This document shows positions 3,023-47,774 of a DNA stretch of 47,774 bases, in pieces. This stretch comes from an uncultured Gammaproteobacteria bacterium (GTDB lineage Bacteria; Pseudomonadota; Gammaproteobacteria; Pseudomonadales; Azotimanducaceae), in contig CAJWCW010000001.1 of assembly GCA_913030615.1 (NCBI GenBank), positions 1 through 47,774 of the forward strand, read 5' to 3'. How positions within the stretch are numbered: position 1 is the stretch's first letter; every line of letters starts with the position of its first letter. The position numbers and the translations under genes are program-made. The notes under the pieces are model-generated. The model was not told the origin of the DNA and ran no database searches. It was given only the letters and a program-made list of their open reading frames with translations.

Positions 3023-3835
3023 TCAGTTGATTGCTGGATTCTTCCGATAGAGATCTCGGATGTAGGGTTTTGCTTTACCCGCGTACGTTGGGTGTAGCGC
3101 TTTGACTCGGGTAGCGTTTACGACCGGCCAGTCAGCGGGTATTTTCTGGATCTTCGCCACCATTTGTGCCTTGACCCGGTCGGGTAGCGTGGCGTAGTCC
3201 GGCTGAAACCACAACGTGATGACCGTCCTCCATTCCGAGGACTTGTTGGCGTAGGCAGCGTGTAGCAGACGCGCGTCCCCGATCACGACGTCGCCCGCTC
3301 GGACGGGAACATCTACTTCATCAGGCCTTATTGAAAAGGCGAGTTGATCGAGATCCTCGGCGCGAGAAAGCATGCCCGAATGTGGATTATCGATGTGTTC
3401 GTGCAGCACGTTGTGGTGCCGATGCGAACCAGGAATGACGCGCAAACATCCATTGGCAACGGATGTATTCGAGAGGTAATACATCAAGAACACTTGTTGT
3501 GGCGATGTGTCGTAGGCTCTGGGGTCCTGCCAGGCGAACCAGTCGTAATGCCAGAACAACGGGGGACTTTGGGGCGGCTTGCTGATGATGTAGCCATCAG
3601 TAAACGTGGGATTCTCGAACCCCATCGAAGAAAGTCGATCGAGCGCAGGCGACCATGAGATTAGATCGGCAAATAGCGGGTGGGCCATGGCGCTCCGCAT
3701 TTCACCCTGGGCACGATGTGCCGTGCTCGGCCCGACGGGATCGCTTTGTTGAAGTTGCGTGACGACGTCGCATAGTTGTGACAGAAAGGGACGAGTAAGA
3801 ATGTCTTCAAAGACGCAATATCCCTCGTTAATCAA
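3023..3835 (-). CDS. Phytanoyl-CoA dioxygenase (PhyH) family Fe(II)/2OG oxygenase
   Basis: 270 aa. WHYDW (HxD), GCLRVIPGSHR, LLHAAYANKS. TTG start at 3835. The frame is open for 14 more codons upstream (see finding). TGA stop. Confidence 0.8.
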   Translation of the reverse strand: MINEGYCVFEDILTRPFLSQLCDVVTQLQQSDPVGPSTAHRAQGEMRSAMAHPLFADLISWSPALDRLSSMGFENPTFTDGYIISKPPQSPPLFWHYDWFAWQDPRAYDTSPQQVFLMYYLSNTSVANGCLRVIPGSHRHHNVLHEHIDNPHSGMLSRAEDLDQLAFSIRPDEVDVPVRAGDVVIGDARLLHAAYANKSSEWRTVITLWFQPDYATLPDRVKAQMVAKIQKIPADWPVVNATRVKALHPTYAGKAKPYIRDLYRKNPAIN

Positions 3836-22875: not shown

Positions 22876-23091
22876 ATGATTATCTGTTACTGCTTTCAAG
22901 TAACGAAGGAAGACATCGAGTCTCGTATCGCGAACGGAGAAACGCTTGCAGGTATCCGTGCGACGACTGGTTTGGGCTACGGATGCGGTGGTTGCGCGTC
23001 GCTAGCCGAACGTGCCTGGGGTGAAGAGTCGGAGCCAGAAGCCACCAACGGTTCGAGGCCTCGGACTGTCGGAGTTAAGACTTTTCCATAG
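22876..23091 (+). CDS. BFD-like [2Fe-2S]-binding domain protein
   Basis: 71 aa. MIICYCFQVT ... GYGCGGCA gives the C-x-C ... C-x-x-C pattern of bacterioferritin-associated-ferredoxin-type domains. Confidence 0.75.
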   Translation: MIICYCFQVTKEDIESRIANGETLAGIRATTGLGYGCGGCASLAERAWGEESEPEATNGSRPRTVGVKTFP

Positions 23092-23143: not shown

Positions 23144-24286
23144 TTAACGATCCCCTGGTGCCATGTAGAACCAAATCGGTTGCTTCTCGCCGGCTTCGCG
23201 CATTGCAGATCGAGCTTCCAGCAAGAGCTTTCCACCTTCAGTGCTATCGAAAAACCAGCGGGTCCCTGACCAAGCAGCGGGAATGTGATCGCTAAGTCCT
23301 AAGGCGGCCGTCTCGTAATAACCGCGAATGTCTTGTGCGACGCGGGCAGGGATGCCCGGTATACCGGCTTTTTTCCAGGGGCTCCCGTTCGCGACTTGAA
23401 TTAACGATAGGAGAGCGTCTTCGATGCCGTCAGCGTCAACAACTCGCCCGGTCCCTGAGTGATTACCGAATTGTTTGACGGCTCTTTCGTACGCCGGGCG
23501 GAGGCCACGAGCTTCGTCGATGGCGGGAGGTAAATCAGCAGTACTACGCGGCGGCAACGGACAAGTGAGGAGCTCTGCTTCGTCGGTGACGGCCTCTCCA
23601 AAATCTTCCAAAACCGGGCCTTCAGCTTGCAGTAATCGGAACGCGTGTTCTAGCACTCGATGCTGGAACGCGGGATCGCCGGGTTTTCCTAAGGGTCGAC
23701 CTAGGGGGAAATCGCACCAGAGTCCCCGAGGAGGAGCGGCGCCTTCGAGTTGTTTTCTTATCGAGCCGAGCGCGACGGTTGCAATGCCGTGTGCTTCGAA
23801 GACGTGGGCAAGCGTACTCACGGTACGTGTACACAAGGGTCAGACCGGGGTCAGTAGAACGACGTCGACACCTTGCTTCTTCAATAGAGTGGCACCGGCA
23901 GGGCCACTATCCATTCGGATCGCTGTCAGATCAAACTGATTACCTGCGTACGATAGATGCGAATCGGACACTCGCCCGATGGTTCCTTGAGACGCGAGTT
24001 CGTCGAGCCGATCCAAGGGAATGATGGTGTTGATGTCGCTAGCAAAGCCGACACTGTCGAAATTTGGGCTCCAGTGGCCGGTTTGGTAATCGCGTCTTTT
24101 CCCGTCCAGTACACGGAATCCCGTATCGTTGGGAGCGAAATCGTCTTGGTCTGCGTGATGAAGGGAGGCCGACGTGACGATCGCCACATTGGCTTGGCTT
24201 AAATGGGGTGGCGTCGTGAAAGCGGTCGTGTCGAATATGGGCGCTTCGACATCTTCCGCCATCTCCTTTACCTGCCTGTCTGCCAT
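23144..24286 (-). CDS. Predicted selenoprotein: glycine/sarcosine/betaine/D-proline reductase selenoprotein B (GrdB/PrdB) family-like protein (in-frame TGA at 23840-23842)
   Basis: Track ORFs 23840..24286 and 23144..23836 share one frame and are separated only by TGA + CCC. The junction reads GVDVVLLTPV-TGA-PLCTRTVSTLAHVFEAHGIATVALGS. Upstream, DINTIIPLDRLDELASQGTIGRVS matches my recollection of the GRDB domain. Strong RBS AAGGAGGAAGGAG before ATG 24286. 380 aa, U at residue 149. Confidence 0.72.
23813..23827 (-). promoter_or_regulatory. Candidate SECIS-like hairpin for the GrdB-like UGA
   Basis: The mRNA segment CGUAC-CGUGA-GUACG forms 5 bp with a 5-nt loop containing G. The loop starts 17 nt after the UGA. 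It is a short stem and was folded by eye. Confidence 0.3.
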
Positions 24287-24373
24287 CTCCTTCCTCCTTG
24301 CGTAATCAATGCGTTGAAAGGTTCGTTCGTGTGGTGATCGTTACGTTTGCACTTGGTATCCAAAGCCAACGAC

Positions 24374-25471
24374 CTAAATCGGTTGACTGACACTGTAGGT
24401 ATTCGGTTCGAGCTTTTCTGCTATTTCTCTTGTCAGCTCGCCGACTGGGTTAAATGCACCGTTCTCCAGTTCTTGTCGAACCTTCAACGCGTTCTTGCTC
24501 AGGCCCATTCGACGCAACAGCTTATCGCTCGCGTTAGCGATGATGTCGGGGCTGACCATAAGCATCCAACTCTCTTGCTGACGGAGCCACGTCTTGTTAT
24601 TAGCTTGAGTCATTACGTAACGCCATTCTTTTGATCGGTTGGCGCCGGTGCCATGTAATGTCCTGCCATCAAAGAGCATCACGGTACCTGCCGGTGCTTC
24701 GAGATTGATTGCAGGAGGCAGCTTTCCAACCTCGCCACCACTTCCGGCTTCGGAAAGAATCCGGTGGGAGCTTGGGATCAATAGTGTTCCACCATTTTTT
24801 TCGTTGACGTCTTGGAGTATGTACATGGTGTTGACTAACACCGGCGATTGCGGCGTTTGCAGCGGCAGGATGGCCCCCTGGTCCTGGTGAAGTGTCTGTG
24901 GTTTGCAGCCCGGGTAGGAGATATTCCCTGCCATGCTGTAGCTGTACCAACGTGTACCTAGAAACTCGTTCAACAGTTGTTCGATGACACGGCCCCCTTG
25001 GATCCATTCTGGGTCGTGTTCAATGCAGCGCCGGAAACACTCCCCTTTGTTGATGAGATACCAGACGATTTGGAAGAACGGAGTGAAGTGGGCAATATTC
25101 GCGATGCGTTCAGCTTCGGCTTGTTCTTCGAGGCGAGCTCGAAGCACGGCACGGGATTCTTCGCCGATCGCGTCCTCGATTAGGCAAAAGCCCCAGTCGA
25201 AAAAGTCGTGTCGCAGTTGGTTCAGGTCTTTGGTCGGCGTGGGTAAATCGTAATTCTTCCAATAAGAATGCTTTCTGGGAACCGTCGTGTCGTAGAACTT
25301 ACCTTCTCCCCAAACAAGCTCGTCATCTTCTGCTGGGCCCTGAAGCCACGGGTTGTTGGCGAGCATCGACTTGTATGGTTCCTGGCATTCGAGAAATTCC
25401 TTGAACGGTAAAAAGGCTTCTGCAGACGCGGCCTCGATCGCCTCTTGAGTAAATTCTTGTGGAATTGACAT
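24374..25471 (-). CDS. Phytanoyl-CoA dioxygenase (PhyH) family Fe(II)/2OG oxygenase
   Basis: 365 aa. LHQDQG (HxD), GGTLLIPSSHR, RTLHGTGANRS. Confidence 0.8.
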   Translation of the reverse strand: MSIPQEFTQEAIEAASAEAFLPFKEFLECQEPYKSMLANNPWLQGPAEDDELVWGEGKFYDTTVPRKHSYWKNYDLPTPTKDLNQLRHDFFDWGFCLIEDAIGEESRAVLRARLEEQAEAERIANIAHFTPFFQIVWYLINKGECFRRCIEHDPEWIQGGRVIEQLLNEFLGTRWYSYSMAGNISYPGCKPQTLHQDQGAILPLQTPQSPVLVNTMYILQDVNEKNGGTLLIPSSHRILSEAGSGGEVGKLPPAINLEAPAGTVMLFDGRTLHGTGANRSKEWRYVMTQANNKTWLRQQESWMLMVSPDIIANASDKLLRRMGLSKNALKVRQELENGAFNPVGELTREIAEKLEPNTYSVSQPI

Positions 25472-25480
25472 GGTGGAATC

Positions 25481-26395
25481 CTAACCGCCTAGCGACGATT
25501 CATTGATTGACGAAGGGTGAAAGTCACTGGCTCGATGATCCGCGAAGGTTGGCGCAAGTTCGGATTCCGGCTCGCCAGAAATTCGTGATGCTCTGAGTAT
25601 TCGAGGTTGGTTGGTGTCGTACGGTCTCGCTCGATGCATGACGCAGCGATTATCCCAAACAACGATATCGCCGACGCACCAACTATGTTTATAGGTTCTT
25701 GGAGGCTGGCAGGCATTGTCCAAGAGATCGGATAGTAATGTTTCGGATGCGAGCGGGCTCATCCCCGGGATTCCATAGGCATGCCGACCGGTATAGATGG
25801 ATTTACGTCCGGTTTCGGGGTGCTTCTTAACGATGGGTCGAAGCGGAGCGCCTTTGTCATGAAACCCGTATACGTGATCGGTCGTGTGAACGTACCCGGC
25901 CGTCGATTGCGAGTAATAAAGCGAATGGTAGGCGGACATTCCTTGCAGTTGTTCTTGGGTGTCGGCGTCGAGCTTATCCCATGCAGCTCGCATGTCGGCG
26001 AATTCCGTTTCGCCATTTTCTGGCGGTACGACCAGTGCCGCTAGCATGCCGGCTTTCGCAGCAAGCGGCATGTAGGTACTGTCCGTGTGCCAACCTTCGT
26101 TTCCCTTCATGAGACGGAATCCTTGGTCGTCCGGTTTGACCGTTTCGCCATTGGGTTTTTGGTTCGAAAATTGTAGCGTTGGCCCCGCTTGTTTTGGATG
26201 TAACTTTTCGGTGTTGCCGAAACGTAAAGCAAATTTTCCCTGTGAGTCCTCGGACAAGTGCTGACCAGGGAAAATCAAAACGCCGTATTCCAGGAAGTTA
26301 GTGTGGATTGCTTGCCAAAGGTCATCCTTCACGTTCGCAAGGTCGACGTCAGTTATGACTGCGCCTAACGTGGCATCGGTAGGTATGACATTCAT
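25481..26395 (-). CDS. TauD/TfdA family Fe(II)/2OG dioxygenase
   Basis: 304 aa. WHTDSTY (HxD) and WDNRCVMHRA. There is a 9-nt gap to the downstream PhyH gene. Confidence 0.85.
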   Translation of the reverse strand: MNVIPTDATLGAVITDVDLANVKDDLWQAIHTNFLEYGVLIFPGQHLSEDSQGKFALRFGNTEKLHPKQAGPTLQFSNQKPNGETVKPDDQGFRLMKGNEGWHTDSTYMPLAAKAGMLAALVVPPENGETEFADMRAAWDKLDADTQEQLQGMSAYHSLYYSQSTAGYVHTTDHVYGFHDKGAPLRPIVKKHPETGRKSIYTGRHAYGIPGMSPLASETLLSDLLDNACQPPRTYKHSWCVGDIVVWDNRCVMHRARPYDTNQPRILRASRISGEPESELAPTFADHRASDFHPSSINESSLGG

Positions 26396-27634: not shown

Positions 27635-28420
27635 CTAGATGGATATTTCGCCTTGCAGATATTTTTTTGTGTGGCCGCCAATGAATACTCGGGAACCGCT
27701 CAACTCGCAATAAAGGCGCCCAGATCGTTGCGACAGCTGCGCTGCGGTGAACTCGGTTTTGCCGGTTTTACGGGCCCAATAGGGCACCATGAGCGTATGT
27801 GTGGACCCTGTCACAGGGTCTTCCGGGACGCCCGTTCTCGGCGCGAAAAAGCGAGAGACAAAGTCCACTTGGTCCCCTGGCGCCGTGACGATAACGCCCC
27901 TGCACTCTAGTTTGGCAAGTAAACTGAAGTCCGGGTCGATGGCGTGAATGGCCTTCTCACTCTCAAAGACTGCAAGGAAATCGTCTTGGCCCTTGTAAAA
28001 CTCGACGGGTTCTGCGCCTAGTGCCTGCGCGAGGTTCTTGTTTTTTTTCTCGACCGTAGGTGTCTCCGCGGGAAAATCCAAGTAGATCAAGTCGTCCCTT
28101 TTGAACGCGCTGAGGGAACCTCTTTTCGCCGAGAAATTAACGCGTGAAGAATTCGGTGGTAGGTGGTCGTCAAAGAGAATGCGCGCGCTTGCGAGAGTCG
28201 CATGGCCACACAGATCAACTTCCACCAAGGGGGAAAACCAACGAATCGAGAATGGCATCGCCGCGACCAATACGAATGCCGTTTCTGACAGATTATTTTC
28301 GAAAGCGATGGATTGCATGGTCGCAGTGTCGAGGCTCTCTGTGACAGTAACGACTGCGGCAGGATTGCCTTGGAAAAGTTTCTCAGCGAATGCGTCAACG
28401 TAATAGATGGGCAATCTCAA
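27635..28420 (-). CDS. PhzF-family isomerase/epimerase-like protein
   Basis: MRLPIYYVDAFAEKLFQGNPAAVV from TTG 28420, and EDPVTGSTH near the C-terminus. The track ORF extends to 28792, but that N-terminal extension overlaps the divergent gene and looks non-coding. Confidence 0.8.
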   Translation of the reverse strand: MRLPIYYVDAFAEKLFQGNPAAVVTVTESLDTATMQSIAFENNLSETAFVLVAAMPFSIRWFSPLVEVDLCGHATLASARILFDDHLPPNSSRVNFSAKRGSLSAFKRDDLIYLDFPAETPTVEKKNKNLAQALGAEPVEFYKGQDDFLAVFESEKAIHAIDPDFSLLAKLECRGVIVTAPGDQVDFVSRFFAPRTGVPEDPVTGSTHTLMVPYWARKTGKTEFTAAQLSQRSGRLYCELSGSRVFIGGHTKKYLQGEISI

Positions 28421-28616
28421 TCTAGGATTCCATTTGATCAGGGTGCGTTCGCGTGGTGTGCAGTAATGTACCAGAGGATGATCTTGACCTGTTTGATCGG
28501 GAAGGACTTCGGGACGCAAACCGATTGTTTCGTAATAATGATGCAGACGCGCGCCAACTTGGCGCGTAGATTGACGACGTGTTGTTTCTGAGATCTTTGA
28601 ATTGGCGCGTAATTTC

Positions 28617-30281
28617 ATGCAACGATTAAAAGTGTTTACGGCAGCTCGGATCCGAACGATGGACCCGGGTCGACCGGTGGCCAACGCGGTTGCGGTTGGT
28701 GACGGAAAAATTGTATCGGTAGGGTCACTGGAATCAATGCGGCCGTGGTTGCGAAGGGTCCCCCACGACATTGATGAGACTTTTGCTGACAAAGTAATAC
28801 TGCCCGGGTTTATCGATCCCCATACCCACCTGCGTCTATCTGGGACCTATATGGGGCTGAATTACGTTGGTCCGATCGATTCAACCGACCCAAACGGGAA
28901 ACCCTTGAAGGGTTTGCCAAATCGAGAAGCCGTGCTTTCGCGATTGAATTCGTTAGCCAAAGATCGTACCGAAGCAGTTGTTGCATGGGGTTACGATCCA
29001 GGTATGCAGGACGGTCATTTGGATCGAGACATGCTCGACGAGATCTCCTCGGAGGTCCCGATATGGGTAATTGCGTACGCGCCGCACATTATTTACACCA
29101 ACACGCCGATGATCGAAAGGATAGGTGTTGACGAAAATACTAGGGTGCATGGAGTCGGGCGCTATTCCGACGGAAGGCTAAACGGCTGGTTTGTCGAAAC
29201 TGAGGCGACGGCACTTGCCTCAGGTCCCGTGAAAAAGGAAGTGTTTGGAAAGGGATTTGGCCTGGCGTCGTTAGAACTTCAGGGACGCGTCGCTGTCAAA
29301 AGCGGGGTGACGACGACTGCCGATATGATTTACGGCATTGATTCGTTTGAACGCGAGTGGGAAGACCATGCGGCTGCGATTGAACAAGAGTTGCTACCCC
29401 TACGCGTGATGTTGGTTCCGTTTGAATCTCGATTACGTAAACGGTTCGGGGATGACTTTCTTCGTTTTTATGAATCCATGAAAAACAAGTCCACGGACCG
29501 TCTCGCCATACACGGCGTTAAATTCGTCAATGACGGATCGTATCCGTCGATGACCTTGCGTTTGAATTTCCCTGGATACCTCGACGGCGAGATCGGTCTC
29601 ACCGGTGAAGTACCGTGGGAGGACATGTTCGACCGAATGTTGCCATTCTGGAGTAACGGAATTCAGATCCACTCACATGCCAACGGCGACGAAACCGTCG
29701 ACATGACACTCAACACATTAAATGCGCTACAAAACGCCGCACCTCGATTCGATCATCGTTTCACCGTGGAACACTACTGCATCAGTACCCCCGCCCAAGC
29801 GAGACGACTTGCGGCGTTGGGTGGCCTTGCTAGCGTCAATCCCTATTTTGTGCATTACCGGTCACAAATCCACGCGGACCATGGGTTTGGCCCTGACCGG
29901 ACCGAGACGACAGCGCGGTTAGGGTCTCTGGTTAACGCGGGTGCGACTTTCGCTCTCCATTCCGACTACAACTTGGTGGTCGCGCCGATGCATCCTTTGA
30001 CTGCGGCATGGATTGCCGTGAATCGTATAGCAGCCGACGGGAAAACTGTTGTTGGGCCCGGCGAACGGATCTCGGTTGACCGGGCAATTCGCGCGATCAC
30101 CGTGGACGCAGCATTTGTTCTTAATAGAGACGATAGTTTGGGCAGTATTGAGGTAGGTAAACATGCCGACTTTGCAGTGCTTGATGACGATCCCTACGAG
30201 GTTGAACCCGGAGCCTTGAAGGCCATCGGTATCCATGGGACTGTGCTTGGAGGGAACGTTCATATTGCCGGTACCCCATAA
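28617..30281 (+). CDS. Amidohydrolase-3 (YtcJ-like) metal-dependent hydrolase, copy 1
   Basis: PGFIDPHTHL (HxH), IHSHANGDE, HSDY, GKHADFAVLDDDP. ATG 28617 gives MQRLKVFTAARI. Confidence 0.85.
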   Translation: MQRLKVFTAARIRTMDPGRPVANAVAVGDGKIVSVGSLESMRPWLRRVPHDIDETFADKVILPGFIDPHTHLRLSGTYMGLNYVGPIDSTDPNGKPLKGLPNREAVLSRLNSLAKDRTEAVVAWGYDPGMQDGHLDRDMLDEISSEVPIWVIAYAPHIIYTNTPMIERIGVDENTRVHGVGRYSDGRLNGWFVETEATALASGPVKKEVFGKGFGLASLELQGRVAVKSGVTTTADMIYGIDSFEREWEDHAAAIEQELLPLRVMLVPFESRLRKRFGDDFLRFYESMKNKSTDRLAIHGVKFVNDGSYPSMTLRLNFPGYLDGEIGLTGEVPWEDMFDRMLPFWSNGIQIHSHANGDETVDMTLNTLNALQNAAPRFDHRFTVEHYCISTPAQARRLAALGGLASVNPYFVHYRSQIHADHGFGPDRTETTARLGSLVNAGATFALHSDYNLVVAPMHPLTAAWIAVNRIAADGKTVVGPGERISVDRAIRAITVDAAFVLNRDDSLGSIEVGKHADFAVLDDDPYEVEPGALKAIGIHGTVLGGNVHIAGTP

Positions 30282-30282
30282 G

Positions 30283-31329
30283 ATGCGGTCCCAATCCGAG
30301 CATTTAATGGCAGCATGGGAAACGTTATTGCTTACTCTAGGCGCGCCGCCATCCGAAACACTTCCGGAACGGAACGTCACAAAACGAAATCAGGGGGCGC
30401 GCGGAACAAAAATCCCTGTGACGGTGCTCAGTGGGTTTCTTGGATCCGGGAAAACGACGTTACTTCAGCAATTGCTCCAAAATTCCTCGACCGAAATTGT
30501 TGCTATCGTGAACGATATAGCGTCGATCAATGTCGATGCCGCGCTCATCCGCTCCACGAATGCTGAAACCATTGAGCTCCAAAATGGATGCGTGTGTTGT
30601 GTGCTCGGTTCTGACTTGTTCGACTCGCTCCGGAACATTGGTTTACGATCAAAATGGCCGGACGCAATCGTAATCGAATCTAGCGGTCTCTCAGATCCAA
30701 TGGGCATCGCACAGACCGTGGCCAATGTTGACACTATGTCGCTCGATGGAATAGTTACGGTTGTAGACGCGCTCTCGTTTCGAGAAAGAATCGCTGATCC
30801 GGTCACAGCCATGCTTTTTGAACGCCAGCTTGCGGCTGCTCATCTTATTGTGTTGACCAAGACAGCCACGCGCAAAGATGCTGATCTGCTCATTGAAACG
30901 TTGGCCGAGATGGTTCCAGGACGCCGGGTCATCGTTTCCGATCTTTTGATGGGAAACGATGGCGAATTAGCCAATGACCTTTTGTTAGGGGCTTCAACGC
31001 AGGGCGCTCGACCGCCTCTAGGCGTTAGCACTCACGATTACGATGGATTTTCAGTTGAGACGGTCGATCGCCCCGAGCCGATTCGCGCACGAATTTTTTT
31101 TTCGTTATTGGACCAAATACCGGACTCCGTCTATCGGATGAAAGGTGGAGTCCGTGTCCGAGAGGAGAGTCGAGAGCTTGAACATGTGGAAACGTATTCC
31201 GTGCAAGCTGCCGGAGCCCACTGGCGCGTTGTTCGACAGCCCACGGAGGGGGAGTTGGACCGGCTTATTGTCATTGGACGCAGGAACGATCCCGCGTTGG
31301 AGTCGTTCGTTCTCAAACTTCGCGAATAA
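30283..31329 (+). CDS. COG0523 (CobW/ZigA-type) G3E GTPase metallochaperone, copy 1
   Basis: Walker A GFLGSGKTT and the CxCC motif NGCVCCV. ATG 30283 lies 1 nt after the amidohydrolase TAA. Confidence 0.85.
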   Translation: MRSQSEHLMAAWETLLLTLGAPPSETLPERNVTKRNQGARGTKIPVTVLSGFLGSGKTTLLQQLLQNSSTEIVAIVNDIASINVDAALIRSTNAETIELQNGCVCCVLGSDLFDSLRNIGLRSKWPDAIVIESSGLSDPMGIAQTVANVDTMSLDGIVTVVDALSFRERIADPVTAMLFERQLAAAHLIVLTKTATRKDADLLIETLAEMVPGRRVIVSDLLMGNDGELANDLLLGASTQGARPPLGVSTHDYDGFSVETVDRPEPIRARIFFSLLDQIPDSVYRMKGGVRVREESRELEHVETYSVQAAGAHWRVVRQPTEGELDRLIVIGRRNDPALESFVLKLRE

Positions 31330-31344
31330 CGGTCATCTCTTTGG

Positions 31345-32265
31345 CTATGGGGATTTTCCGTTGGGGTGGCATCCAGTGGAGTCCTCTAGAATTCCATCAG
31401 GAAATTTAGGCGACAGCGATGTTGGCCAAATCACGACGATTTCGGTTTGCTTTGGACTTTTGCCCCAAGCTTCCCCCGTCGAAATGGCTCTTTGCCTTCC
31501 GACACCTTGAATGACCCATCGGTGTTTTGGGTCACCTGAATTGTAGAAAATTCCCTTTATTCGGTGTATTTCCGGGGGAAGACTGACAAGCCAACTCTCG
31601 ATGTCGTCCAGATCCAGGGAATCGCTCGTAGTGAATGTTTTCGATTCGAACATTATGTTGGCACTGCCTACTGAAGAATGGTTGGACGCAGAAATTTCGA
31701 ATAGGCGTTGCGAGGCAAATTCGTCGCTTTGCATGATAGAAACATCGGGTGCTTGCGCATTAATCCAACGTTGAAGTGATGGCCAGTCGTTGTCTTTGTC
31801 GAGTTTTGTGACTAGGACTCTGTCGGCTTGGCGGAGCTGCTCAATAATCAGCGGGCCAACGAACTTATCCATTGCCAAGAGTTGGATTCGGTTGGCGTCG
31901 GCCATAACAAGTGTTCCGCCAGGTGCCAGTCCGGGCCAGGTTTTTGCATATGAAGCAATCTTTGCTGGGTACGCGACACCGCTGGTTTCCACCAGTACCG
32001 CATCGAGGGTTGGCGTGACATTCAAGAGTGTCTCTATGCCTGAACCAAGCTCGTTACCGAGTCGACAACACACGCATCCGTTGGCGAGAGAAATCAATGG
32101 CCCTTCTTGACCCTGAATTAACTTTGCGTCGATGTTTATGGCGCCGAAATCATTGATTAGTACACCAACCCGCAGGCCATGATTGTCGCCAAGAATCTTG
32201 TTTATCAATGTCGTTTTCCCGGCCCCGAGGTATCCGCCGATAACGATAAAAGGGACCTCAGTCAT
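31345..32265 (-). CDS. COG0523 (CobW/ZigA-type) G3E GTPase metallochaperone, copy 2
   Basis: Walker A GYLGAGKTT and the CxCC motif NGCVCCR. ATG 32265 overlaps the upstream amidohydrolase TGA (ATGACTGA, 8-nt overlap). Confidence 0.85.
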   Translation of the reverse strand: MTEVPFIVIGGYLGAGKTTLINKILGDNHGLRVGVLINDFGAINIDAKLIQGQEGPLISLANGCVCCRLGNELGSGIETLLNVTPTLDAVLVETSGVAYPAKIASYAKTWPGLAPGGTLVMADANRIQLLAMDKFVGPLIIEQLRQADRVLVTKLDKDNDWPSLQRWINAQAPDVSIMQSDEFASQRLFEISASNHSSVGSANIMFESKTFTTSDSLDLDDIESWLVSLPPEIHRIKGIFYNSGDPKHRWVIQGVGRQRAISTGEAWGKSPKQTEIVVIWPTSLSPKFPDGILEDSTGCHPNGKSP

Positions 32266-33910
32266 TGATAAGGTAGGGGGTGCCTTTGAACACCGTTGCC
32301 GCAACATCGATATCCTTTAATCCCTCCCCACCAACAGCGTATGGATCGGTATCGAGAACGGTGAAGTCCGCGCTCTTCCCGGCTCGTAAACTACCAATCT
32401 CGTCCTCCATCCCGAGCACGTAGGCGGCTTCGATGGTGATGGCGGCAAGTGCTTGGTCCAAGGTTAGCGATTCCTCGGGACAAACGACGTCGCCGTCCAT
32501 ATTTTTTCGTGTTGACGCGACCCAGGCATTGTTTAAGGGAGATGCGGGAGCCATCGTAAAGTCCGAATGGATGGCCGTATGGATGCCAGCGCGGACGCAA
32601 GAACCGACACGGGCCATTTGATGCGCGCGTTCGTATCCAATCCCTTGCTGCGCGTAGATCGCTGAAAGTTCGTGTACGTAATACACGTTGGCGGAAACTG
32701 ACGCGCCTAGAGCTGCGATTCGTGCCACTTGTTCCGGCGTAGAGAATCCAAAATGCTCGATGGTGTACCGGTGGTCAAAGCGTGGTCGTTCCCACTGCAA
32801 GGTATCCAACGCATCGAGCGCAAGTTCTAGCCCTAGGTCGCCTGTGCAATGAACGTGAATCATATAACCGGCGTTCCAATATCGGCGGGCGATGTCGATG
32901 AATTGTTCGGGTGCGACCAACCATTCCCCGAGATGACCGTCAATGTATCCAGGTTCTTTGAGTTGAGCGAGTTGAGAGAAGAAGGCGCCGTCGGTGAATA
33001 GTTTGACGTGCTTTGGGAACAATAAACGCTCGGTACCGCGTTCAGCCAATCCATCCATGAAAGTTAGCGCTTGATCATGGCCCCCTTGTATCGACGCGAC
33101 GCTAGCCGCCGAGGGAACCAAAACGGTTCTGAACGGGGTATTTACGTCGTCCAACACGTCCTTGGTGCCTTGCCACTCCATGTCGAAATTGAACAAGCCC
33201 ACTGCCATGTCACCGAGCGTTGTGTGGCCTCCGTGATGCGCGACTTCTACAAGCCTCCGCAAGCCGTCTCGATAACGTTCGTTTGACAGAATATATGGGT
33301 TGAGTTTGACGATGGCGTAAGCGAGGCCGTTCTCATAAAACCGGCCGGCGGCGAAGTCGATTTGTTGTTTACCCTCGGTCTCGTTGGCCGTAATCCCAAG
33401 CCAAGCCATGGCACCGTCGTTCATGTATAGCTCGTGAAATGATCGATGCCAGACGATGATCGGTCTGTCGACGGACACGGCATTCAACAACGTCCGGTTC
33501 ATCGGACCATGCCAAAGTTGGTGGTAACCCCATGTAAAGAGTGGTTCGTCGGGCGCTTGTTCGCCGTGAAGTTCATGCAACCGCCGAAAGAAGTCTACGG
33601 GCGTAGTCACCGGTTGGACGGTTTCCCACGGCAGTTCCCAACGGGTAGCCGTGATAAATCGCATCGGCAATAACACCGCTGCCATTGAGGGATGCAAGTG
33701 CGGGTCGATGAATCCGGGAGCGACGACTTTATCTGCGAACTGATCGTTGATGCGATGTGGATGAGATTCCAGCCAGGGTTTGAGTGTTTCGAGTGTGCCC
33801 ACCTCCATTATCCTGCCGTTTTTGGTGGCAATTGCTGTGGCGTAAGGCCAAGAGCGATTCATCGTGATGACTTTTCTTGCTGTAAAAACCGTGAGCTCGT
33901 CTGTTCCCAT
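32258..33910 (-). CDS. Amidohydrolase-3 (YtcJ-like) metal-dependent hydrolase, copy 2
   Basis: PGFIDPHLHP, IHVHCTGD, HSDF, GKSADFTVLDTDP. A clear paralogue of 28617..30281: shared VFTA, VG(S/T)LE, PWL, FADKV blocks. Confidence 0.85.
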   Translation of the reverse strand: MGTDELTVFTARKVITMNRSWPYATAIATKNGRIMEVGTLETLKPWLESHPHRINDQFADKVVAPGFIDPHLHPSMAAVLLPMRFITATRWELPWETVQPVTTPVDFFRRLHELHGEQAPDEPLFTWGYHQLWHGPMNRTLLNAVSVDRPIIVWHRSFHELYMNDGAMAWLGITANETEGKQQIDFAAGRFYENGLAYAIVKLNPYILSNERYRDGLRRLVEVAHHGGHTTLGDMAVGLFNFDMEWQGTKDVLDDVNTPFRTVLVPSAASVASIQGGHDQALTFMDGLAERGTERLLFPKHVKLFTDGAFFSQLAQLKEPGYIDGHLGEWLVAPEQFIDIARRYWNAGYMIHVHCTGDLGLELALDALDTLQWERPRFDHRYTIEHFGFSTPEQVARIAALGASVSANVYYVHELSAIYAQQGIGYERAHQMARVGSCVRAGIHTAIHSDFTMAPASPLNNAWVASTRKNMDGDVVCPEESLTLDQALAAITIEAAYVLGMEDEIGSLRAGKSADFTVLDTDPYAVGGEGLKDIDVAATVFKGTPYLIND

Positions 33911-33915
33911 AATCG

Positions 33916-36393
33916 TTACTGCCTCACCCGCAAAGAATCTGGATCGTACATCGGCCTGAAGCTCGCGGCAGCTGGAAATCTGGTCCCAGCGATCTCTATT
34001 TCAAAATTACTGTCGTTGATAGACGCTTGGTTTAGGGGTTGCTTGGCGGCGATGTATCCGAGGGCTACGTTGCCGCCCAAGGTATGGCCGTAATTGGCTG
34101 ATGTGACATAACCTACCTGAACCCCGTCTCGAAAAATGGGTTCGTCGTGGTACGGCCGAGCCTCTTGGTCCGGTAAAAGAAATTGGGTCAAGCGGCGGTC
34201 GACGCCTTCGTCTCGTTGGCGCAGAAGCGCATCTTGACCGATAAAGGCAGTCTCTTTGTCAAATGCACAGGCAAAGCCTAGACCGGCCTCTAGTGGAGTA
34301 TCGCCGTCGGCAATATCGTGTCCCCAATGGCGGTAGGCTTTTTCGATCCGACACGAATCAAGTGCATGGTACCCGGCTAGGCCGATTCCGACCGATTTGC
34401 CTGCGTCGAACACTGCGCAAAAAAGCTCGAGTGCGGCGTTCCAGGGACAGTACAGCTCCCATCCAAGTTCACCCACGTAGGTGATGCGTTGGGCCCAACA
34501 AGTGATTCCGGTTATTTCAAGCTCTCGCCCGGTTCCAAATGGAAATGACTCGTTGTCGAGATTTGTGCGCGTCAACGAAGAAAGGAGCGTACGGCTTTGG
34601 GGACCCATCACGCCCAAAACAGCCCATTCTTCGGTGACATCGGATACAGAACAGTCCTTGCCCGTCGGAATATGGTTTAGCAACCAGTGCCAATCTTTAC
34701 GTCTAGTGGTCGGCGCTGTAATTACTCGAAAGGCGTGTTCGGCGATCCGCGTGACGGTGACGTCGGCTTCGATGCCAGCCCGTTCATTCAGCCAGGGAGT
34801 GTAGGTGATTGAACCTATATCTCGACCCACACTGTTTGCGCAGATTCGTTCCAATACGCATTCTGCATCCGGACCTACGACGTCAAATTTGGCAAATGAC
34901 GTTTGGTCGTAAAGCGCTACTCGTTCTCGTGTTGTCTCGTGCTCTTTTTTTTGGTTGTGGTACCAATTTTGTGGGCCGTAACTGTATTCGTATTTGGGCT
35001 TGGTTCCCGCATCGGCAAACCAGTTGGCCCGTTCCCAGCCGGCTAATTCGCCGAAGCAAGCTCCCTCGGATACGAGACGTTGATGAAGCGGACTGCAAAG
35101 CACATCCCGGCTTGTCGTGTATTGCCGATACGGCCAGTGCATGCCGTAGAGCATGCCCAGAGTTTCGCTGACTCGGTCGCGGAGATATAGGGATTCGTTT
35201 TGGAAAGGGAAAGTCCGTTGTATATTTACTTCCCAAAGATCCGGCGGTGGGTAGCCACGCATTATCCACTCGGCGATCGCCAGGCCAACGCCGCCCGCGG
35301 ATTGAATACCGATGGAGTTGAATCCGGCGGCGACGAAGTAGCCTTTTAGTTCTGGCGCTTCGCCGATGAGGTAGCGATTATCGGGTGTGAAACTCTCCGG
35401 CCCATTAAAAAAACGCGATAGACCCGTTTCCCTAATTCGGGGTACGCGTCGGGTTGCGCCTTCGAGAATGGGCGCCACATGGTCGAGGTCTTCCGGCAGT
35501 TCGCCAAAGGAGAAGTCGTTCGGTATCCCATTCATTCCCCAAGGTTTACCGACAGGTTCGAAGGCTCCAATCAGGAGCTTTCCCGCGTCTTCCTTGAAGT
35601 AGGCGCAACCGTCAAAGTCTCGCAATATCGGGAGATCCGAGGGCAGATCAGCGATAGGTTCCGTCAGGCAATAGAAGTGTTCGCACGCATGCAACGGAAC
35701 GTTGACGCCTGAGGCTTGAGCCAATTCTCGCGCCCACATGCCTGCGCAATTAACGATTATTTCCGAAGCGATGTAACCGACCGACGTTTCCACCCCTCGG
35801 ACTTGGCCATCTTGTTGTACGACACCGATGACAGGTGTCTTCTCCATAAGACGCGCACCAAACAGCCGAGCACCCTTCGCGAGCGCCATCGTGACGTCGA
35901 CGGGATTGATCTGCCCATCGTTCGGATAGTAGATCGCGCCGACCAAGTCATTAGTCTGGGCTAGTGGCCATAATTGCGCGACGTCCCTTGAGGTTGCTTC
36001 CTCTGCTTCGATGCCAAGACTGCGCGCCACTGTCGCGCCACGTCGCAGTTCTCCCCAGCGGTCTTGATCGGTGGCGATCGCAATGCTGCCGTTGCGTTTT
36101 AATCCAGTCGCCTGTCCTGTCTCTTCGGTGAGTTTTTCGTAAAGCGATACGGAATATCGAGCCAATTCAGTTAACGCGCGAGTTCCACGGAACTCTGAAA
36201 GAAGACCGGCCGCATGCCACGTGGTCCCGCTGGTAAGCCGGTCACGCTCAAGAAGAAGAACGTCTTCCCCCAGTTTCGCTAGGTGGTAGGCGACGCTGCA
36301 ACCTACCACGCCTCCACCCAAAACGATGACGCCTGCGGTCGTCGGCTGTTCCTGGGTTTCGAGTTCTTTATGATTGTCGGTACGTTGTTTCAA
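33916..36393 (-). CDS. Dimethylglycine/sarcosine dehydrogenase-like FAD oxidoreductase fused to a GcvT (folate-binding) domain
   Basis: 825 aa. GGGVVGCSVAYHLAKLG, and TSGTTWHAAGLL, which is the covalent-flavin His context of the DMGDH/SDH family. C-terminal aminomethyltransferase-type domain. Confidence 0.85.
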   Translation of the reverse strand: MKQRTDNHKELETQEQPTTAGVIVLGGGVVGCSVAYHLAKLGEDVLLLERDRLTSGTTWHAAGLLSEFRGTRALTELARYSVSLYEKLTEETGQATGLKRNGSIAIATDQDRWGELRRGATVARSLGIEAEEATSRDVAQLWPLAQTNDLVGAIYYPNDGQINPVDVTMALAKGARLFGARLMEKTPVIGVVQQDGQVRGVETSVGYIASEIIVNCAGMWARELAQASGVNVPLHACEHFYCLTEPIADLPSDLPILRDFDGCAYFKEDAGKLLIGAFEPVGKPWGMNGIPNDFSFGELPEDLDHVAPILEGATRRVPRIRETGLSRFFNGPESFTPDNRYLIGEAPELKGYFVAAGFNSIGIQSAGGVGLAIAEWIMRGYPPPDLWEVNIQRTFPFQNESLYLRDRVSETLGMLYGMHWPYRQYTTSRDVLCSPLHQRLVSEGACFGELAGWERANWFADAGTKPKYEYSYGPQNWYHNQKKEHETTRERVALYDQTSFAKFDVVGPDAECVLERICANSVGRDIGSITYTPWLNERAGIEADVTVTRIAEHAFRVITAPTTRRKDWHWLLNHIPTGKDCSVSDVTEEWAVLGVMGPQSRTLLSSLTRTNLDNESFPFGTGRELEITGITCWAQRITYVGELGWELYCPWNAALELFCAVFDAGKSVGIGLAGYHALDSCRIEKAYRHWGHDIADGDTPLEAGLGFACAFDKETAFIGQDALLRQRDEGVDRRLTQFLLPDQEARPYHDEPIFRDGVQVGYVTSANYGHTLGGNVALGYIAAKQPLNQASINDSNFEIEIAGTRFPAAASFRPMYDPDSLRVRQ

Positions 36394-42985: not shown

Positions 42986-43525
42986 TTGATACCGCAACGG
43001 TCACGCGTCAAGATCAACACGCCGATTTTCGAGGTGCAATCTCCTACAGATATTCGTCGACTGTTGGTTTTGCTGACCCTTGGCGTGCTGGTTGCGGGTT
43101 GTGAACCACAGGACGTTCGACCGGGACTCTGGCTTGGTGGCGAGAACGTATCTTCGCCAGTCGAGGATTGGCGATTCACCGATCAAATTGAGGAAGTATT
43201 CATTGAAACCCGACCCTGGTATGGGATTCCACATTCCACCACCATTTGGTGTGTACAAGTCGGTAATGAGCTCTTTATTGGGTCGTATGGAGAAAAAAAG
43301 AAATTCTGGGAAATCAATATCTTACGAGACTATCGTGCGAAGATAGGTATCATGGGTAAGATCTATGACGTGGCGGTCACAAGACTGGACGACGCGGCGG
43401 TGCATCGTTCCGTAACCATGGCTTATCAACGAAAATACGATATGGCCGAGGTTTTTGGTAAAAAGATTCCAGCGTGGTCGTTTTATCGAGTGGAGCAGGA
43501 AGGAAATGAAAAACCCTCTACATAA
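42986..43525 (+). CDS. Hypothetical lipoprotein
   Basis: RRLLVLLTLGVLVAGC lipobox-type signal. No family recognised. The start may be GTG 43034. The 3' end overlaps the aminotransferase start by 20 nt. Confidence 0.5.
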   Translation: MIPQRSRVKINTPIFEVQSPTDIRRLLVLLTLGVLVAGCEPQDVRPGLWLGGENVSSPVEDWRFTDQIEEVFIETRPWYGIPHSTTIWCVQVGNELFIGSYGEKKKFWEINILRDYRAKIGIMGKIYDVAVTRLDDAAVHRSVTMAYQRKYDMAEVFGKKIPAWSFYRVEQEGNEKPST

Positions 43526-44831
43526 CGAGTTAGACCTCTCGGCTTACTGGATGCCGTTTACGGCTAACCGAGCTTTCAAAAACGAGCCCCGGCTCATGAA
43601 AAGCGCTCAAGGTATGTATTACACCACCGTCGACGATCGCCAAATTATGGATGGGATGTCGGGGCTCTGGTGCTGCAACGCGGGTCATTGTCATCCTCAC
43701 ATCGTTGAAGCCATTCGCCAGGCGGCGGGTGCGCTCGATTATTCTCCAGCTTTTCAAATGGGTCATCCCGAAATTTTTCGCCTCGCTGAACGTCTAGCGA
43801 ACATGATGCCCGACGGCATGGACGCTGTGTTCTTTACTAACTCCGGATCAGAATCCGTTGATACTGCGCTCAAGATTGCACTGGGCTATCACCATGCCCG
43901 TGGGGAAGCCCAACGGACCCGTTTGGTGGGACGGCAACGTGGGTATCACGGTTCTGGGTTTGGTGGGACCAGTGTCGGCGGCATCGGCAACAACCGTATT
44001 GCGACTGGGCCCTTGCTTCCTGGCGTGTTCCATCTTCCGGAAACCTACGATCTAGAGCGTCAGGCATTTAGCAAAGGCCAACCCTCCTGGGGAGCTCATC
44101 TCGCGAATGATCTTGAACGCATTATTGCGAGCAACCACGCGAGTACCATCGCGGCGGTCATTGTTGAACCGTTCGCCGGCTCAGGCGGTGTATTGGTACC
44201 GCCCATCGGCTATCTGGAGCGACTTCGTGAAATCACGGAAGAGCATGGAATCTTGCTCATCTTTGATGAAGTGATTACCGCATTCGGGCGACTTGGTTGG
44301 GGCTCAGCGGCGGAGAGACTAGGTGTCGTGCCTGACATCATGTGTACCGCGAAGGGACTGACCAGCGGTACGGTGCCGATGGGAGCGGTAGTAGTTCAGG
44401 AGCAAATTCGAGAAGCCTTTATGCAAGGCCCCCCCGCGGCGATCGAATTTTTTCACGGCTACACCTATTCAGGACATCCTCTGGCGGCCGCGGCAGCGAA
44501 TGCGGCATTGGACGTGTATGAAAACGAAAATTTGTTTGAACACGTTCGCGGACTCGAAGCCAATTGGGAGGCGGGGTTGCACGCGCTCGCCGATAAGCCG
44601 CACGTCATCGACGTGCGTAATTTTGGTCTCGCGGGTGCGGTGGAATTGCGTCCGCGAGATGGCGCTCCGACCCAGCGTGCGATGTCCGTCTTTCGTGAGG
44701 CGTTTGATCGCGGCCTTCTTGTTCGCACCACGGCGGAAATTGTTGCGCTCGCGCCCCCGCTGGTAATTAATGAAACCGAGATCAAGCAAATGCTCGGGAT
44801 ACTCGGTGACGTATTGGATGAAATTATCTAG
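43506..44831 (+). CDS. Class III (omega) aminotransferase, beta-alanine/omega-amino acid:pyruvate type
   Basis: YWMPFTANRAF N-terminus, FTNSGSESVD, DEVITAFGRLG, and PLP-Lys context DIMCTAKGLTSG. Confidence 0.85.
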   Translation: MKNPLHNELDLSAYWMPFTANRAFKNEPRLMKSAQGMYYTTVDDRQIMDGMSGLWCCNAGHCHPHIVEAIRQAAGALDYSPAFQMGHPEIFRLAERLANMMPDGMDAVFFTNSGSESVDTALKIALGYHHARGEAQRTRLVGRQRGYHGSGFGGTSVGGIGNNRIATGPLLPGVFHLPETYDLERQAFSKGQPSWGAHLANDLERIIASNHASTIAAVIVEPFAGSGGVLVPPIGYLERLREITEEHGILLIFDEVITAFGRLGWGSAAERLGVVPDIMCTAKGLTSGTVPMGAVVVQEQIREAFMQGPPAAIEFFHGYTYSGHPLAAAAANAALDVYENENLFEHVRGLEANWEAGLHALADKPHVIDVRNFGLAGAVELRPRDGAPTQRAMSVFREAFDRGLLVRTTAEIVALAPPLVINETEIKQMLGILGDVLDEII

Positions 44832-44864
44832 TTTTTGGATTCAGGAAGGTTAGCGGAGGGAGAG

Positions 44865-46373
44865 TTGGCACAAGCAGAGATCACGGGACATTTCATTGGC
44901 GGCAAACCGGACATGGGTGGTTCGCGGAAGCTCGAGCGATTTGATCCGGCAACCGGTGAACAAATGGGTTACGTCGCGCTTGCAGATGAAACGACGGTCA
45001 ATGCAGCTGTCGATTCGTCGAAAAACGCATACCAAGACTGGCGAGTCGTCGAGCCGGCAAAACGTGCAGTAATTCTCCGGCGATTTTGCGAGTTGGTGAA
45101 CGTCCACGGTGATGAACTTTGCCAACTGATTACCCGTGAACACGGCAAAACACTATTGGATTCTCAAGGCGAGCTGCAGCGCGGGATAGAGAATATTGAA
45201 TATGCCACGGGAATAGCCGAACACTTAAAAGGCGAACACAGCAAGGCAGTTGGGCCGGATATCGACAGTTGGAGTGAGCTGTTGCCCTTAGGTGTCGTTG
45301 TCGGTATCACACCGTTTAACTTTCCTGTCATGGTTCCCATGTGGATGTTCCCTCTAGCCGTTGCGTGCGGGAACGCATTCATCTTAAAACCTTCGGAGAA
45401 AGTTCCGACGGCCGGATACCGATTGGCGGAACTATTCTCGGAGGCGGGACTCCCTGATGGCGTTTTTAACGTTGTTCAAGGCGACCAAGAGACTGCCGGA
45501 TCATTAATGCAGCATCCGGACATAAAGGCGGCGAGTTTTGTTGGTTCAACGCCGGTTGCGCGATCCATATACAAGGCTTCAGGCGACACGGGTAAGCGAG
45601 TTCAGGCTCTTGGCGGCGCAAAAAATCATGCGGTCGTGCTTCCCGATGCAGACGTTGAATCCGCGACCAACGCTATTATGGGGGCAGCATACGGTTCGTG
45701 TGGCCAGCGCTGCATGGCGTTGTCGGTGGTCGTATCGGTGGGTGATGAGACGGCGGACGCGGTTGCCGAAGTATTGAACAAGAAGGTGTCCGAACTAAAC
45801 ATCGGGCCGGGTGTGGATAATCTCGATATGGGACCCCTGAACAGCGCTCCCCAACGTGATCGAATTGTTGATTTGATCCAAGAGGGTGTGGATCAAGGTG
45901 CGACCATACTGGTTGATGGACGAAGACATGCCAGTTATCAACAGCCCGGTTTTTATCTCGGCGGAACACTCTTTGACCACGTTCAACCCGGCATGTCGAT
46001 TTATGACGAGGAAATCTTCGGGCCTGTCCTTTGCCTTGTTCGTGCTAAAACAGCGAACGATGCGATGCGCATAATCAACGACAGTCAGTACGGGAACGGG
46101 ACCTGTATTTTTACTCGAGACGGTTACTCGGCGCGCACCTATGCGAACGAAGTGGAGGCTGGCATGGTCGGGATCAATGTGCCCCTGCCTGTCCCGGTTG
46201 CCAACCACAGCTTTGGTGGTTGGAAGGATTCAAGATTTGGTGACCTTGCCGCGTACGGCCCGGACGGAATTCGGTTCTACACGCGTCGCAAGACCATCAC
46301 AGAACGCTGGACCTCGGCCCCGGACGATAAGGGTATCGACTTCGCGTTCCCAGGTTCACGGTCTTCGGGATAG
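44865..46373 (+). CDS. mmsA: CoA-acylating methylmalonate-semialdehyde dehydrogenase
   Basis: ALDH fold with FNFPVMVPMWM, ALGGAKNH, and catalytic Cys in CGQRCMA. TTG 44865 has GGAGG 5 nt upstream. The track start 44835 is an upstream TTG. Confidence 0.85.
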   Translation: MAQAEITGHFIGGKPDMGGSRKLERFDPATGEQMGYVALADETTVNAAVDSSKNAYQDWRVVEPAKRAVILRRFCELVNVHGDELCQLITREHGKTLLDSQGELQRGIENIEYATGIAEHLKGEHSKAVGPDIDSWSELLPLGVVVGITPFNFPVMVPMWMFPLAVACGNAFILKPSEKVPTAGYRLAELFSEAGLPDGVFNVVQGDQETAGSLMQHPDIKAASFVGSTPVARSIYKASGDTGKRVQALGGAKNHAVVLPDADVESATNAIMGAAYGSCGQRCMALSVVVSVGDETADAVAEVLNKKVSELNIGPGVDNLDMGPLNSAPQRDRIVDLIQEGVDQGATILVDGRRHASYQQPGFYLGGTLFDHVQPGMSIYDEEIFGPVLCLVRAKTANDAMRIINDSQYGNGTCIFTRDGYSARTYANEVEAGMVGINVPLPVPVANHSFGGWKDSRFGDLAAYGPDGIRFYTRRKTITERWTSAPDDKGIDFAFPGSRSSG

Positions 46374-47744: not shown

Positions 47745-47774
47745 CTGCGGGAACACTATTGGGTCGCTTAAGAT

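Follow-up and report, generated by a model that had tools for sequence, protein, structure and literature searches.

A PrdB-like marine selenoprotein as a candidate stand-alone UxxC enzyme of the GrdB/PrdB superfamily

The window analysed here is a stretch of 47,774 nucleotides (contig CAJWCW010000001.1 of assembly GCA_913030615.1, positions 1 to 47,774) from an uncultured gammaproteobacterium of the Azotimanducaceae. Its minus strand carries genes for a TauD/TfdA-family and a PhyH-family dioxygenase, followed by a gene for a PrdB-like protein with an in-frame UGA at codon 149. Sequence comparison leads us to conclude that this UGA encodes selenocysteine (Sec) and that the protein is a member of the marine selenoprotein family listed as 'PrdB' in ocean surveys. 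We favour, with a probability of roughly 60%, reading the protein as a stand-alone, two-domain UxxC selenoenzyme of the GrdB/PrdB superfamily, set in differing aerobic gene cassettes. The family is thus a known one, a structurally distinct branch of the superfamily that lacks PrdA, and not a new kind of system.

Decoding of the UGA at codon 149

Relatives of the gene were collected by scanning a single genome for each species, which gave at least 577 confirmed loci, and the best 80 were used for codon comparison. Each of these 80 (the best 80 of at least 577) has TGA at codon 149, in the context T-P-V-U-P-L-C-T-R. They belong to Gammaproteobacteria, Acidimicrobiia (including Poriferisodalis), Binatia, Entotheonella and Planctomycetaceae. 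Full-length homologues with a cysteine at the site of residue 149, reading P-V-C-P-x-C, exist as well. In an alignment of 101 sequences, position 149 is occupied by Sec in 80, by Cys in 20 and by Gly in one, and Cys152 is invariant.

Downstream of the UGA lies a hairpin of the selenocysteine insertion sequence (SECIS) type. Among 76 unique sequences, from genomes of 44–73% GC, the third positions of codons between +12 and +30 are 87–100% invariant, against 30–74% for the other third positions between −6 and +75. The base pair between positions 18 and 28 is U-A in 68 of these sequences, C-G in seven and C-A in one. The C-G variant combines a synonymous change of an arginine codon with a replacement of threonine by alanine or valine, and is found both in Gammaproteobacteria and in Acidimicrobiia. 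The hairpin is also seen in single-sequence folds of relatives. In the window itself an A at +15 leaves five base pairs; the 68 nucleotides that follow the UGA fold no more stably than shuffled versions (z = 0.98), so that the SECIS assignment depends on the comparison of sequences, and Rfam scans gave no model that matches the hairpin region.

Because the TGA is kept in the relatives, cysteine forms exist and the synonymous sites are frozen around a compensatory pair, the in-frame TGA cannot be put down to chance, and we conclude that UGA149 is read as selenocysteine, aided by the downstream hairpin. An earlier note on this DNA took the protein for a GrdB-like selenoprotein; that it is a real selenoprotein, within the superfamily of GrdB and PrdB, is supported. 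Neither tRNA genes nor selA, selB, selC or selD were found within the 47.8-kb window.

In public databases, well over 1000 entries carry the gene divided by gene callers into open reading frames (ORFs) of 148 and 226–230 residues, labelled 'hypothetical protein' or 'D-proline reductase PrdB'. Taken at face value, these entries would mean two ORFs separated by a true stop, or else a pseudogene or a sequencing error. Yet the same TGA recurs in all 80 of the independent assemblies compared, strong purifying selection acts on the two halves, which form one continuous frame, and the full-length cysteine homologues and the conserved hairpin have to be accounted for. This explanation is effectively refuted.

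Family assignment and domain architecture

The best family match is to the PrdB model TIGR04483 (103.9 bits, E = 9e-30), in which residues 6–220 align to positions 3–219 of 238. The protein is therefore homologous over nearly the whole model to PrdB of Clostridioides difficile and Clostridium sticklandii, but it falls short of the equivalog cutoff of 300 bits. The Pfam GRDB model PF07355 is matched with 27.5 bits, above its gathering score of 22, but only over its C-terminal third (positions 205–345 of 347). Likewise, the NCBIfam models of the GrdB type (GrdB, GrdF and GrdH) align window residues ~8–176 to model positions ~200–377 only. All of these stay below their cutoffs, given in brackets: TIGR01917 34 bits (602), GrdF 43 (800), GrdH 38 (775) and TIGR01918 39.6 (65.45). 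The nearest family is thus PrdB, which corrects the name 'GrdB-like' used in the earlier note.

The PrdB of C. difficile is a 26 kDa protein that carries its selenocysteine at position 151, requires the pyruvoyl group of PrdA and is inactive as the U151C variant (PMC11229817). The selenocysteine of the window protein is at the equivalent position, 149 versus 151 (PMC11229817). D-proline reductase has a UxxC motif and GrdB a UxxCxxC motif (PMC13188914). The window protein shares the UxxC of D-proline reductase, reading U-P-L-C-T-R-T, and differs in this from the UxxCxxC of GrdB (PMC13188914). GrdB, GrdF and GrdH also belong to the superfamily and have their selenocysteine in a UxxC context, but the N-terminal half of GrdB is missing from the window protein. 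Clostridial PrdB has about 240 residues and ends after the PrdB domain, whereas the window protein, with 380, continues into a helical extension of about 150 residues. The hosts also differ: PrdB is found in Stickland fermenters, the window family in aerobic marine or sponge-associated bacteria.

The extension (residues ~232–380) has no Pfam or NCBIfam match; the PrdB model ends at position 238. An AlphaFold 2 (AF2) model was made of the cysteine homologue P0015, which is 49% identical to the window protein. It has a mean predicted local distance difference test score (pLDDT) of 85 and a predicted template modelling score (pTM) of 0.82, and consists of two domains: a beta/alpha domain of residues 1–230 and an all-helical domain, with helices over residues 257–387 modelled at high pLDDT. 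In the 101-sequence alignment, Asp319, Tyr324, Trp344 and Thr349 of the extension are conserved. Beyond the UxxC motif, the family invariants are the block His71/Ser73/Asn75/Asp77, Arg154, Arg187, Arg197, Asp204, Gln208, Cys242 and Glu258, and in the same alignment the segment from Phe193 to Asp204 forms a conserved block with the consensus FPLGRPLGKPGD. The invariant polar residues outside UxxC suggest a defined active site. Neither the protein nor a profile of the family found a real match among PDB sequences, and comparison of the P0015 model with the PDB using Foldseek found only a weak Rossmann-like or B12-binding-domain resemblance (best template modelling scores TMq/TMt 0.28/0.31).

Database relatives number more than 1100 for the C-terminal half and more than 1400 for the N-terminal half. 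Among 1.84 billion cluster representatives, 2785 relatives were found at E ≤ 1e-3, 167 of them at E ≤ 1e-30. Two apparent fusion proteins among the distant relatives, P0325 and P0384, were set aside, as their Pfam domains, where there are any, have no relation to the family. Another relative with a PrdB domain, P0383, has a sub-threshold match (E ~1e-3) to the UGSC family PF24696 in residues 255–314, after its redox motif; the window protein itself has no UGSC match. UGSC is likewise an abundant marine orphan family of UxxC selenoproteins, and it may share a fold with the window family, although any relationship would be distant.

Partner genes

Glycine and proline reductases work as complexes, and their partner proteins were looked for in the window and beside the relatives. 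A Pfam scan of the 41 ORFs of the window detected no GrdA, GrdE/PrdA, GrdC or GrdD, in agreement with the earlier note, and no Grd or Prd partner appears beside any of the 80 relatives either. The neighbour survey covered 81 loci, with about 17 kb taken per relative and the neighbouring ORFs clustered; these were called with a filter on codon-position GC content, which leaves antisense artefacts in clusters c1, c21 and c53. The gene's own two ORFs and an antisense artefact aside, even the most widespread neighbour cluster occurs in no more than about a quarter of the 81 loci. A conserved adjacent partner is therefore excluded. Unlike clostridial PrdB, the gene has no prdA, prdH, prdC or other prd gene beside it in any lineage surveyed; unlike in GrdB systems, grdA, grdE, grdC and grdD were not found near it.

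These results bear on the possibility that the protein is a canonical B subunit of D-proline reductase (or of glycine or betaine reductase), with PrdA/GrdE, GrdA and GrdC/D encoded elsewhere. The homology over the whole PrdB model, the equivalent position of the selenocysteine and the PrdB label given by public pipelines agree with such a role. Set against it are the score of 104 bits where 300 are required, the 34–43 bits reached with the GrdB, GrdF and GrdH models where 602–800 are required, the extra C-terminal domain, and the lack of an adjoining partner gene in any of the 81 loci or of the gene-called contigs. The hosts, moreover, carry O2-dependent oxygenases and a cytochrome-c-linked pyrroloquinoline quinone (PQQ) dehydrogenase. 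We regard a canonical B subunit as very improbable.

Neighbourhoods in other lineages

The surroundings of the gene differ from lineage to lineage; their annotation comes from Pfam scans of one ORF per cluster or from precomputed gene calls on contigs. At loci L084–L086 (6001–8675), the selenoprotein gene is directly followed by a SelO-family gene and preceded by genes for a pyridoxal phosphate (PLP) decarboxylase and three aminotransferases. The host of these loci is a very widely sampled marine gammaproteobacterium, and the N-terminal fragment of this variant occurs in 269 blocks of the contig collection. A PLP decarboxylase also adjoins the gene in the acidimicrobial loci L010 and L012. In a further gammaproteobacterial lineage, at L087–L090 (3370–5793), an SCP2 gene and two U32-peptidase genes lie directly upstream; these resemble the UbiT/UbiU/UbiV set for O2-independent hydroxylation of ubiquinone. 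One lineage (L020, L021, L024) has a TAXI-TRAP transporter upstream. Its three copies, on separate contigs of the metagenome-assembled genome CAXYEH01, were considered as paralogues, but at 99% identity they reflect strain-level redundancy of the assembly. In Acidimicrobiia, PhyH and SDR genes are found upstream, and an MFS gene and a gene for an IOR-like enzyme of 1187 residues downstream; a molybdopterin oxidoreductase gene follows the selenoprotein gene in another lineage.

The cysteine forms have neighbours of their own. At L081 (8001–9628) and L082, an EthD gene is located upstream and a gene for a GcvH-like lipoyl carrier 33 nucleotides downstream. Locus L083 (1877–9200) contains a gene resembling thioredoxin reductase and also a second PrdB-like paralogue, which is shorter (320 residues). 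These redox neighbours at L081–L083 may be candidates for the reductant, or may point to a heteromer. The contigs of the cysteine forms P0015 and P0019 are too short for informative context.

Some of these features would fit a general thiol or selenol redox or antioxidant protein, acting in the manner of thioredoxin on disulfides, peroxides or proteins. Redox selenoproteins typically have a UxxC motif, and the Sargasso Sea survey counts PrdB among thiol-dependent redox selenoproteins with UXXC (PMC1088965). The neighbourhoods are highly variable, the gene is very abundant in data from the oxic surface ocean, SelO adjoins it in an abundant gammaproteobacterium, and cysteine forms are found near GcvH or a few kb from a thioredoxin-reductase-like gene. 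However, the fold is not thioredoxin-like in the AF2 model and by Foldseek, a protein of 380 residues with many invariant charged and aromatic residues suggests a small-molecule pocket, and the recurring neighbours are transporters and catabolic enzymes. A general redox role is in our estimation unlikely.

Oxygenase genes beside the selenoprotein gene

Among the relatives surveyed, the arrangement of the window, TauD-PhyH-selenoprotein, is present only in L001 and L002, whose selenoproteins are 92–93% identical to that of the window. In the next relatives, 78% and 76% identical, different genes surround the selenoprotein gene. The reciprocal comparison was also negative: orthologues of the window's PhyH, at 71, 61 and 55% identity, are found beside SDR, luciferase-like monooxygenase or unknown genes, with no PrdB-like neighbour. 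The trio is thus no conserved module but an arrangement of a narrow clade, and is not to be generalised. Moreover, adjacency to PhyH is weak evidence because PhyH is expanded in this genome, with three such genes in the window (35–799 on the plus strand, 3023–3835 and 24374–25471 on the minus strand).

Oxygenases do recur beside the gene elsewhere. At L007, a TauD-family gene lies 34 nucleotides downstream of it. The PhyH of the Acidimicrobiia is only ~26% identical to that of the window and belongs to a different subfamily; the acidimicrobial sub-lineages with PhyH and SDR genes have selenoproteins that are ~70% identical to one another, as distant as those of different phyla. In the small-genome Poriferisodalaceae (L044, L045 and L064; upstream 3 kb), an AurF-like di-iron oxygenase gene and an SDR gene are located upstream, with the AurF-like gene and one for an unannotated protein of 243 residues standing in the place of PhyH. 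Because antisense artefacts remained in the ORF clusters, PhyH and TauD neighbours were recounted by tblastn. Matches are ~12 times denser within 2.5 kb of the selenoprotein gene than at 2.5–8 kb, with loci counted without correction for relatedness, and all 20 proximal matches have the same orientation as the gene. About three quarters of the loci have no TauD or PhyH within 8 kb, and once collapsed to lineages the enrichment amounts to three or four independent events. Since O2-dependent oxygenases turn up again as neighbours in lineages other than the window's, an oxygenase may be linked more loosely to a reductive step that depends on selenium; the pattern is suggestive.

A stricter version of this link would be a dedicated pathway, in which TauD and/or PhyH hydroxylate a quaternary amine or similar substrate, and the C-N or C-X bond so activated is then cleaved reductively by the selenoprotein. 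The close spacing on one strand without an internal terminator consensus, the return of oxygenases as neighbours (TauD at L007, PhyH-SDR in Acidimicrobiia, AurF-like-SDR in Poriferisodalaceae) and the proximal, co-oriented TauD/PhyH matches are what such a pathway would predict. The confinement of the trio to relatives at least 92% identical, the PhyH orthologues that lack a PrdB-like neighbour, the low identity of the acidimicrobial PhyH, the three PhyH genes of the window, the majority of loci without either oxygenase and the small number of independent events all argue in the opposite direction. A dedicated pathway of this kind appears doubtful to us.

Proposed mode of action

For the stand-alone selenoenzyme that we favour, a mechanism can be transposed from the homology with PrdB. 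Sec149 would act as the nucleophile, attacking an electrophilic centre of a small substrate, and Cys152 would resolve the resulting selenium adduct, leaving a Se-S bond. A cellular dithiol system would presumably re-reduce this bond. The net outcome would be the two-electron reduction or the reductive cleavage of a small molecule, between which the sequence cannot choose. The enzyme would not work within a glycine or proline reductase complex, because no partner gene is conserved and a conserved helical domain is present where canonical PrdB ends. That helical domain may help to form the substrate site, structurally replacing the contribution of PrdA. The gene would then have been inserted into different catabolic or uptake cassettes of aerobes across lineages.

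Several points weigh against this proposal. Partner genes may lie at another place in the genome, outside the roughly 17 kb covered per relative. What the C-terminal domain is proposed to do is a guess, because no solved structure resembles the model. Without activation of the substrate by the pyruvoyl group of PrdA (PMC11229817), the chemistry may be other than reductive C-N cleavage.

A more specific scheme joins the selenoenzyme to its recurrent oxygenase neighbours: PrdB-type selenium chemistry would do without a pyruvoyl partner by an aerobic route of 'oxidise, then reductively cleave'. TauD, PhyH or an AurF-like enzyme, often together with an SDR, would introduce a carbonyl beside the bond to be broken (C-N, C-O or C-S). 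Sec149 would next take the place of the leaving group on the alpha-carbon, after which the enolate would be set free by Cys152; the substrates would be abundant marine or host-derived solutes. We consider this scheme quite unlikely; if it were true, it would assign a function to one of the most abundant selenoprotein families of the ocean.

Relation to the marine PrdB family

Proteins under this name have been counted in the ocean since 2005. The Sargasso Sea survey (Zhang, Fomenko and Gladyshev, 2005) ranked 'proline reductase PrdB' as the third most abundant selenoprotein family, with 42 Sec forms and one Cys form (PMC1088965); the Global Ocean Sampling (GOS) survey (Zhang and Gladyshev, 2008) counted 235 Sec and 110 Cys forms of 'PrdB', among the most abundant marine selenoproteins (PMC2398784); and a later marine survey attributed 6.4% of selenoprotein genes to 'PrdB' (PMC9402790).

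The Sargasso Sea sequence AACY01584242 (VVLLTPVuPLCTRT...FPLGRPLGKPGD) matches the window protein with 51% identity over 172 residues. The alignment reaches the start of the C-terminal extension, and the motifs TPVuPLCTRT and FPLGRPLGKPGD are identical. The UxxC motif, the assignment to pfam07355 and the preponderance of Sec forms over Cys forms in the two surveys also match the window family (PMC1088965, PMC2398784). On these sequence grounds, the window protein is taken to be a member of the Sargasso/GOS 'PrdB' family. The Sargasso set includes other subfamilies too, for example one reading LVPSuGLCNQT (PMC1088965). A part, at least, of the surveyed 'PrdB' set, including AACY01584242, can be equated with the window family. 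The novelty claimed for the protein in the earlier note was accordingly overstated: the family has been catalogued since 2005, and a family labelled 'PrdB' is abundant in later marine surveys.

The surveys named the clostridial PrdB function, and in their available sections the missing PrdA, the extra domain and the genomic contexts are not mentioned (PMC1088965, PMC2398784, PMC9402790). We found no functional study of the family in the literature. The 'PrdB' label therefore stands for an anaerobic clostridial enzyme whose defining partner was not found beside genes of the window family, which sharpens a question now twenty years old, the role of the ocean's abundant 'PrdB'. If the family is a self-sufficient reductase of aerobes, the name 'D-proline reductase' on more than 1000 split ORFs of the protein databases searched is misleading, and part of the ocean's biological demand for selenium serves a reaction yet to be assigned. 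In that case the neighbourhoods would offer leads to the substrate: the oxygenase, SDR and transporter genes, the PLP decarboxylase with the aminotransferases, and the TAXI-TRAP transporter.

The locus and other features of the window

The features of the locus are collected in Table 1. The order, coordinates and spacing of the TauD, PhyH and selenoprotein genes in the earlier note proved correct in every coordinate when re-derived, and the gap before the selenoprotein gene ends in the Shine-Dalgarno-like AAGGAGGAAGGAG directly 5' of the ATG. The gaps are 9 nucleotides between TauD and PhyH and 87 nucleotides between PhyH and the selenoprotein gene, and a consensus scan found no sigma-70-like promoter or intrinsic terminator on the minus strand inside the cluster. 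The three genes are probably co-transcribed in the window's genome, because of these short gaps and the missing promoter and terminator consensus; this evidence is weak. Both dioxygenases keep their iron ligands, His103-x-Asp105 and His254 in TauD, His195-x-Asp197 and His273 in PhyH. TauD scores under every NCBIfam equivalog cutoff. The BFD-like gene, named in the earlier note as a candidate redox partner, is real and convergent with the selenoprotein gene, but it is kept only in L001 and L002 and a partner role is not supported.

Table 1. Coordinates of the selenoprotein locus within the window.
Feature	Position	Strand	Basis and remarks
TauD/TfdA-family Fe(II)/2-oxoglutarate dioxygenase	25481..26395	-	PF02668, 190 bits; first gene of putative three-gene transcript
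PhyH-family Fe(II)/2-oxoglutarate dioxygenase	24374..25471	-	PF05721, 69.8 bits; lineage-specific neighbour of the selenoprotein gene
Shine-Dalgarno-like AAGGAGGAAGGAG	24287..24299	-	Abuts the ATG at 24286; read from the sequence
PrdB-like selenoprotein gene	23144..24286	-	380 codons and stop, single in-frame UGA; translation
PrdB-homologous alpha/beta domain, residues ~6-220	23627..24271	-	TIGR04483 alignment; AF2 model of P0015
UGA codon 149, read as Sec, first residue of the U-P-L-C redox motif	23840..23842	-	TGA kept in relatives
Cys152, last residue of U-P-L-C	23831..23833	-	Alignment, invariant
SECIS-type hairpin	23812..23828	-	+15..+31 after the U of UGA; consensus GCGUAC-CGUGA-GUACGC, loop CGUGA
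C-terminal all-helical extension, residues ~232-380	23147..23593	-	Outside Pfam and NCBIfam matches; AF2 model of P0015
BFD-like [2Fe-2S] ORF	22876..23091	+	PF04324, 42 bits; convergent neighbour of the selenoprotein gene

The O2-dependent setting described in the earlier note holds across the window. In addition to TauD and the three PhyH proteins, Pfam assigns a monooxygenase of the flavin-containing or Baeyer-Villiger type (FMO/BVMO) and an RPE65-type oxygenase, together with a PQQ dehydrogenase with a cytochrome c domain and a dimethylglycine-dehydrogenase-like protein. The regions 33916–36393 (minus strand), 46542–47756 (minus strand) and 43455–46373 (plus strand) encode a dimethylglycine/sarcosine-dehydrogenase-like protein of 825 residues with DAO and GCV_T domains, a stand-alone GcvT-like aminomethyltransferase, a class-III aminotransferase and an aldehyde dehydrogenase. 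These genes hint at aerobic catabolism of methylated amines or amino compounds. A similar DAO-GCV_T gene is found about 5 kb from the selenoprotein gene at L087.

Just beyond the cluster, two genes for CobW/G3E-family GTPases (30235–32307) are located between two Amidohydro_3 genes (28602–30281 and 32258–33910), which may represent a pairing of metal chaperone and amidohydrolase. The PhzF-like ORF at 27635–28792 on the minus strand begins with about 130 residues that have no domain match and overlaps the start of the amidohydrolase gene on the opposite strand; its true start is probably further downstream than listed.

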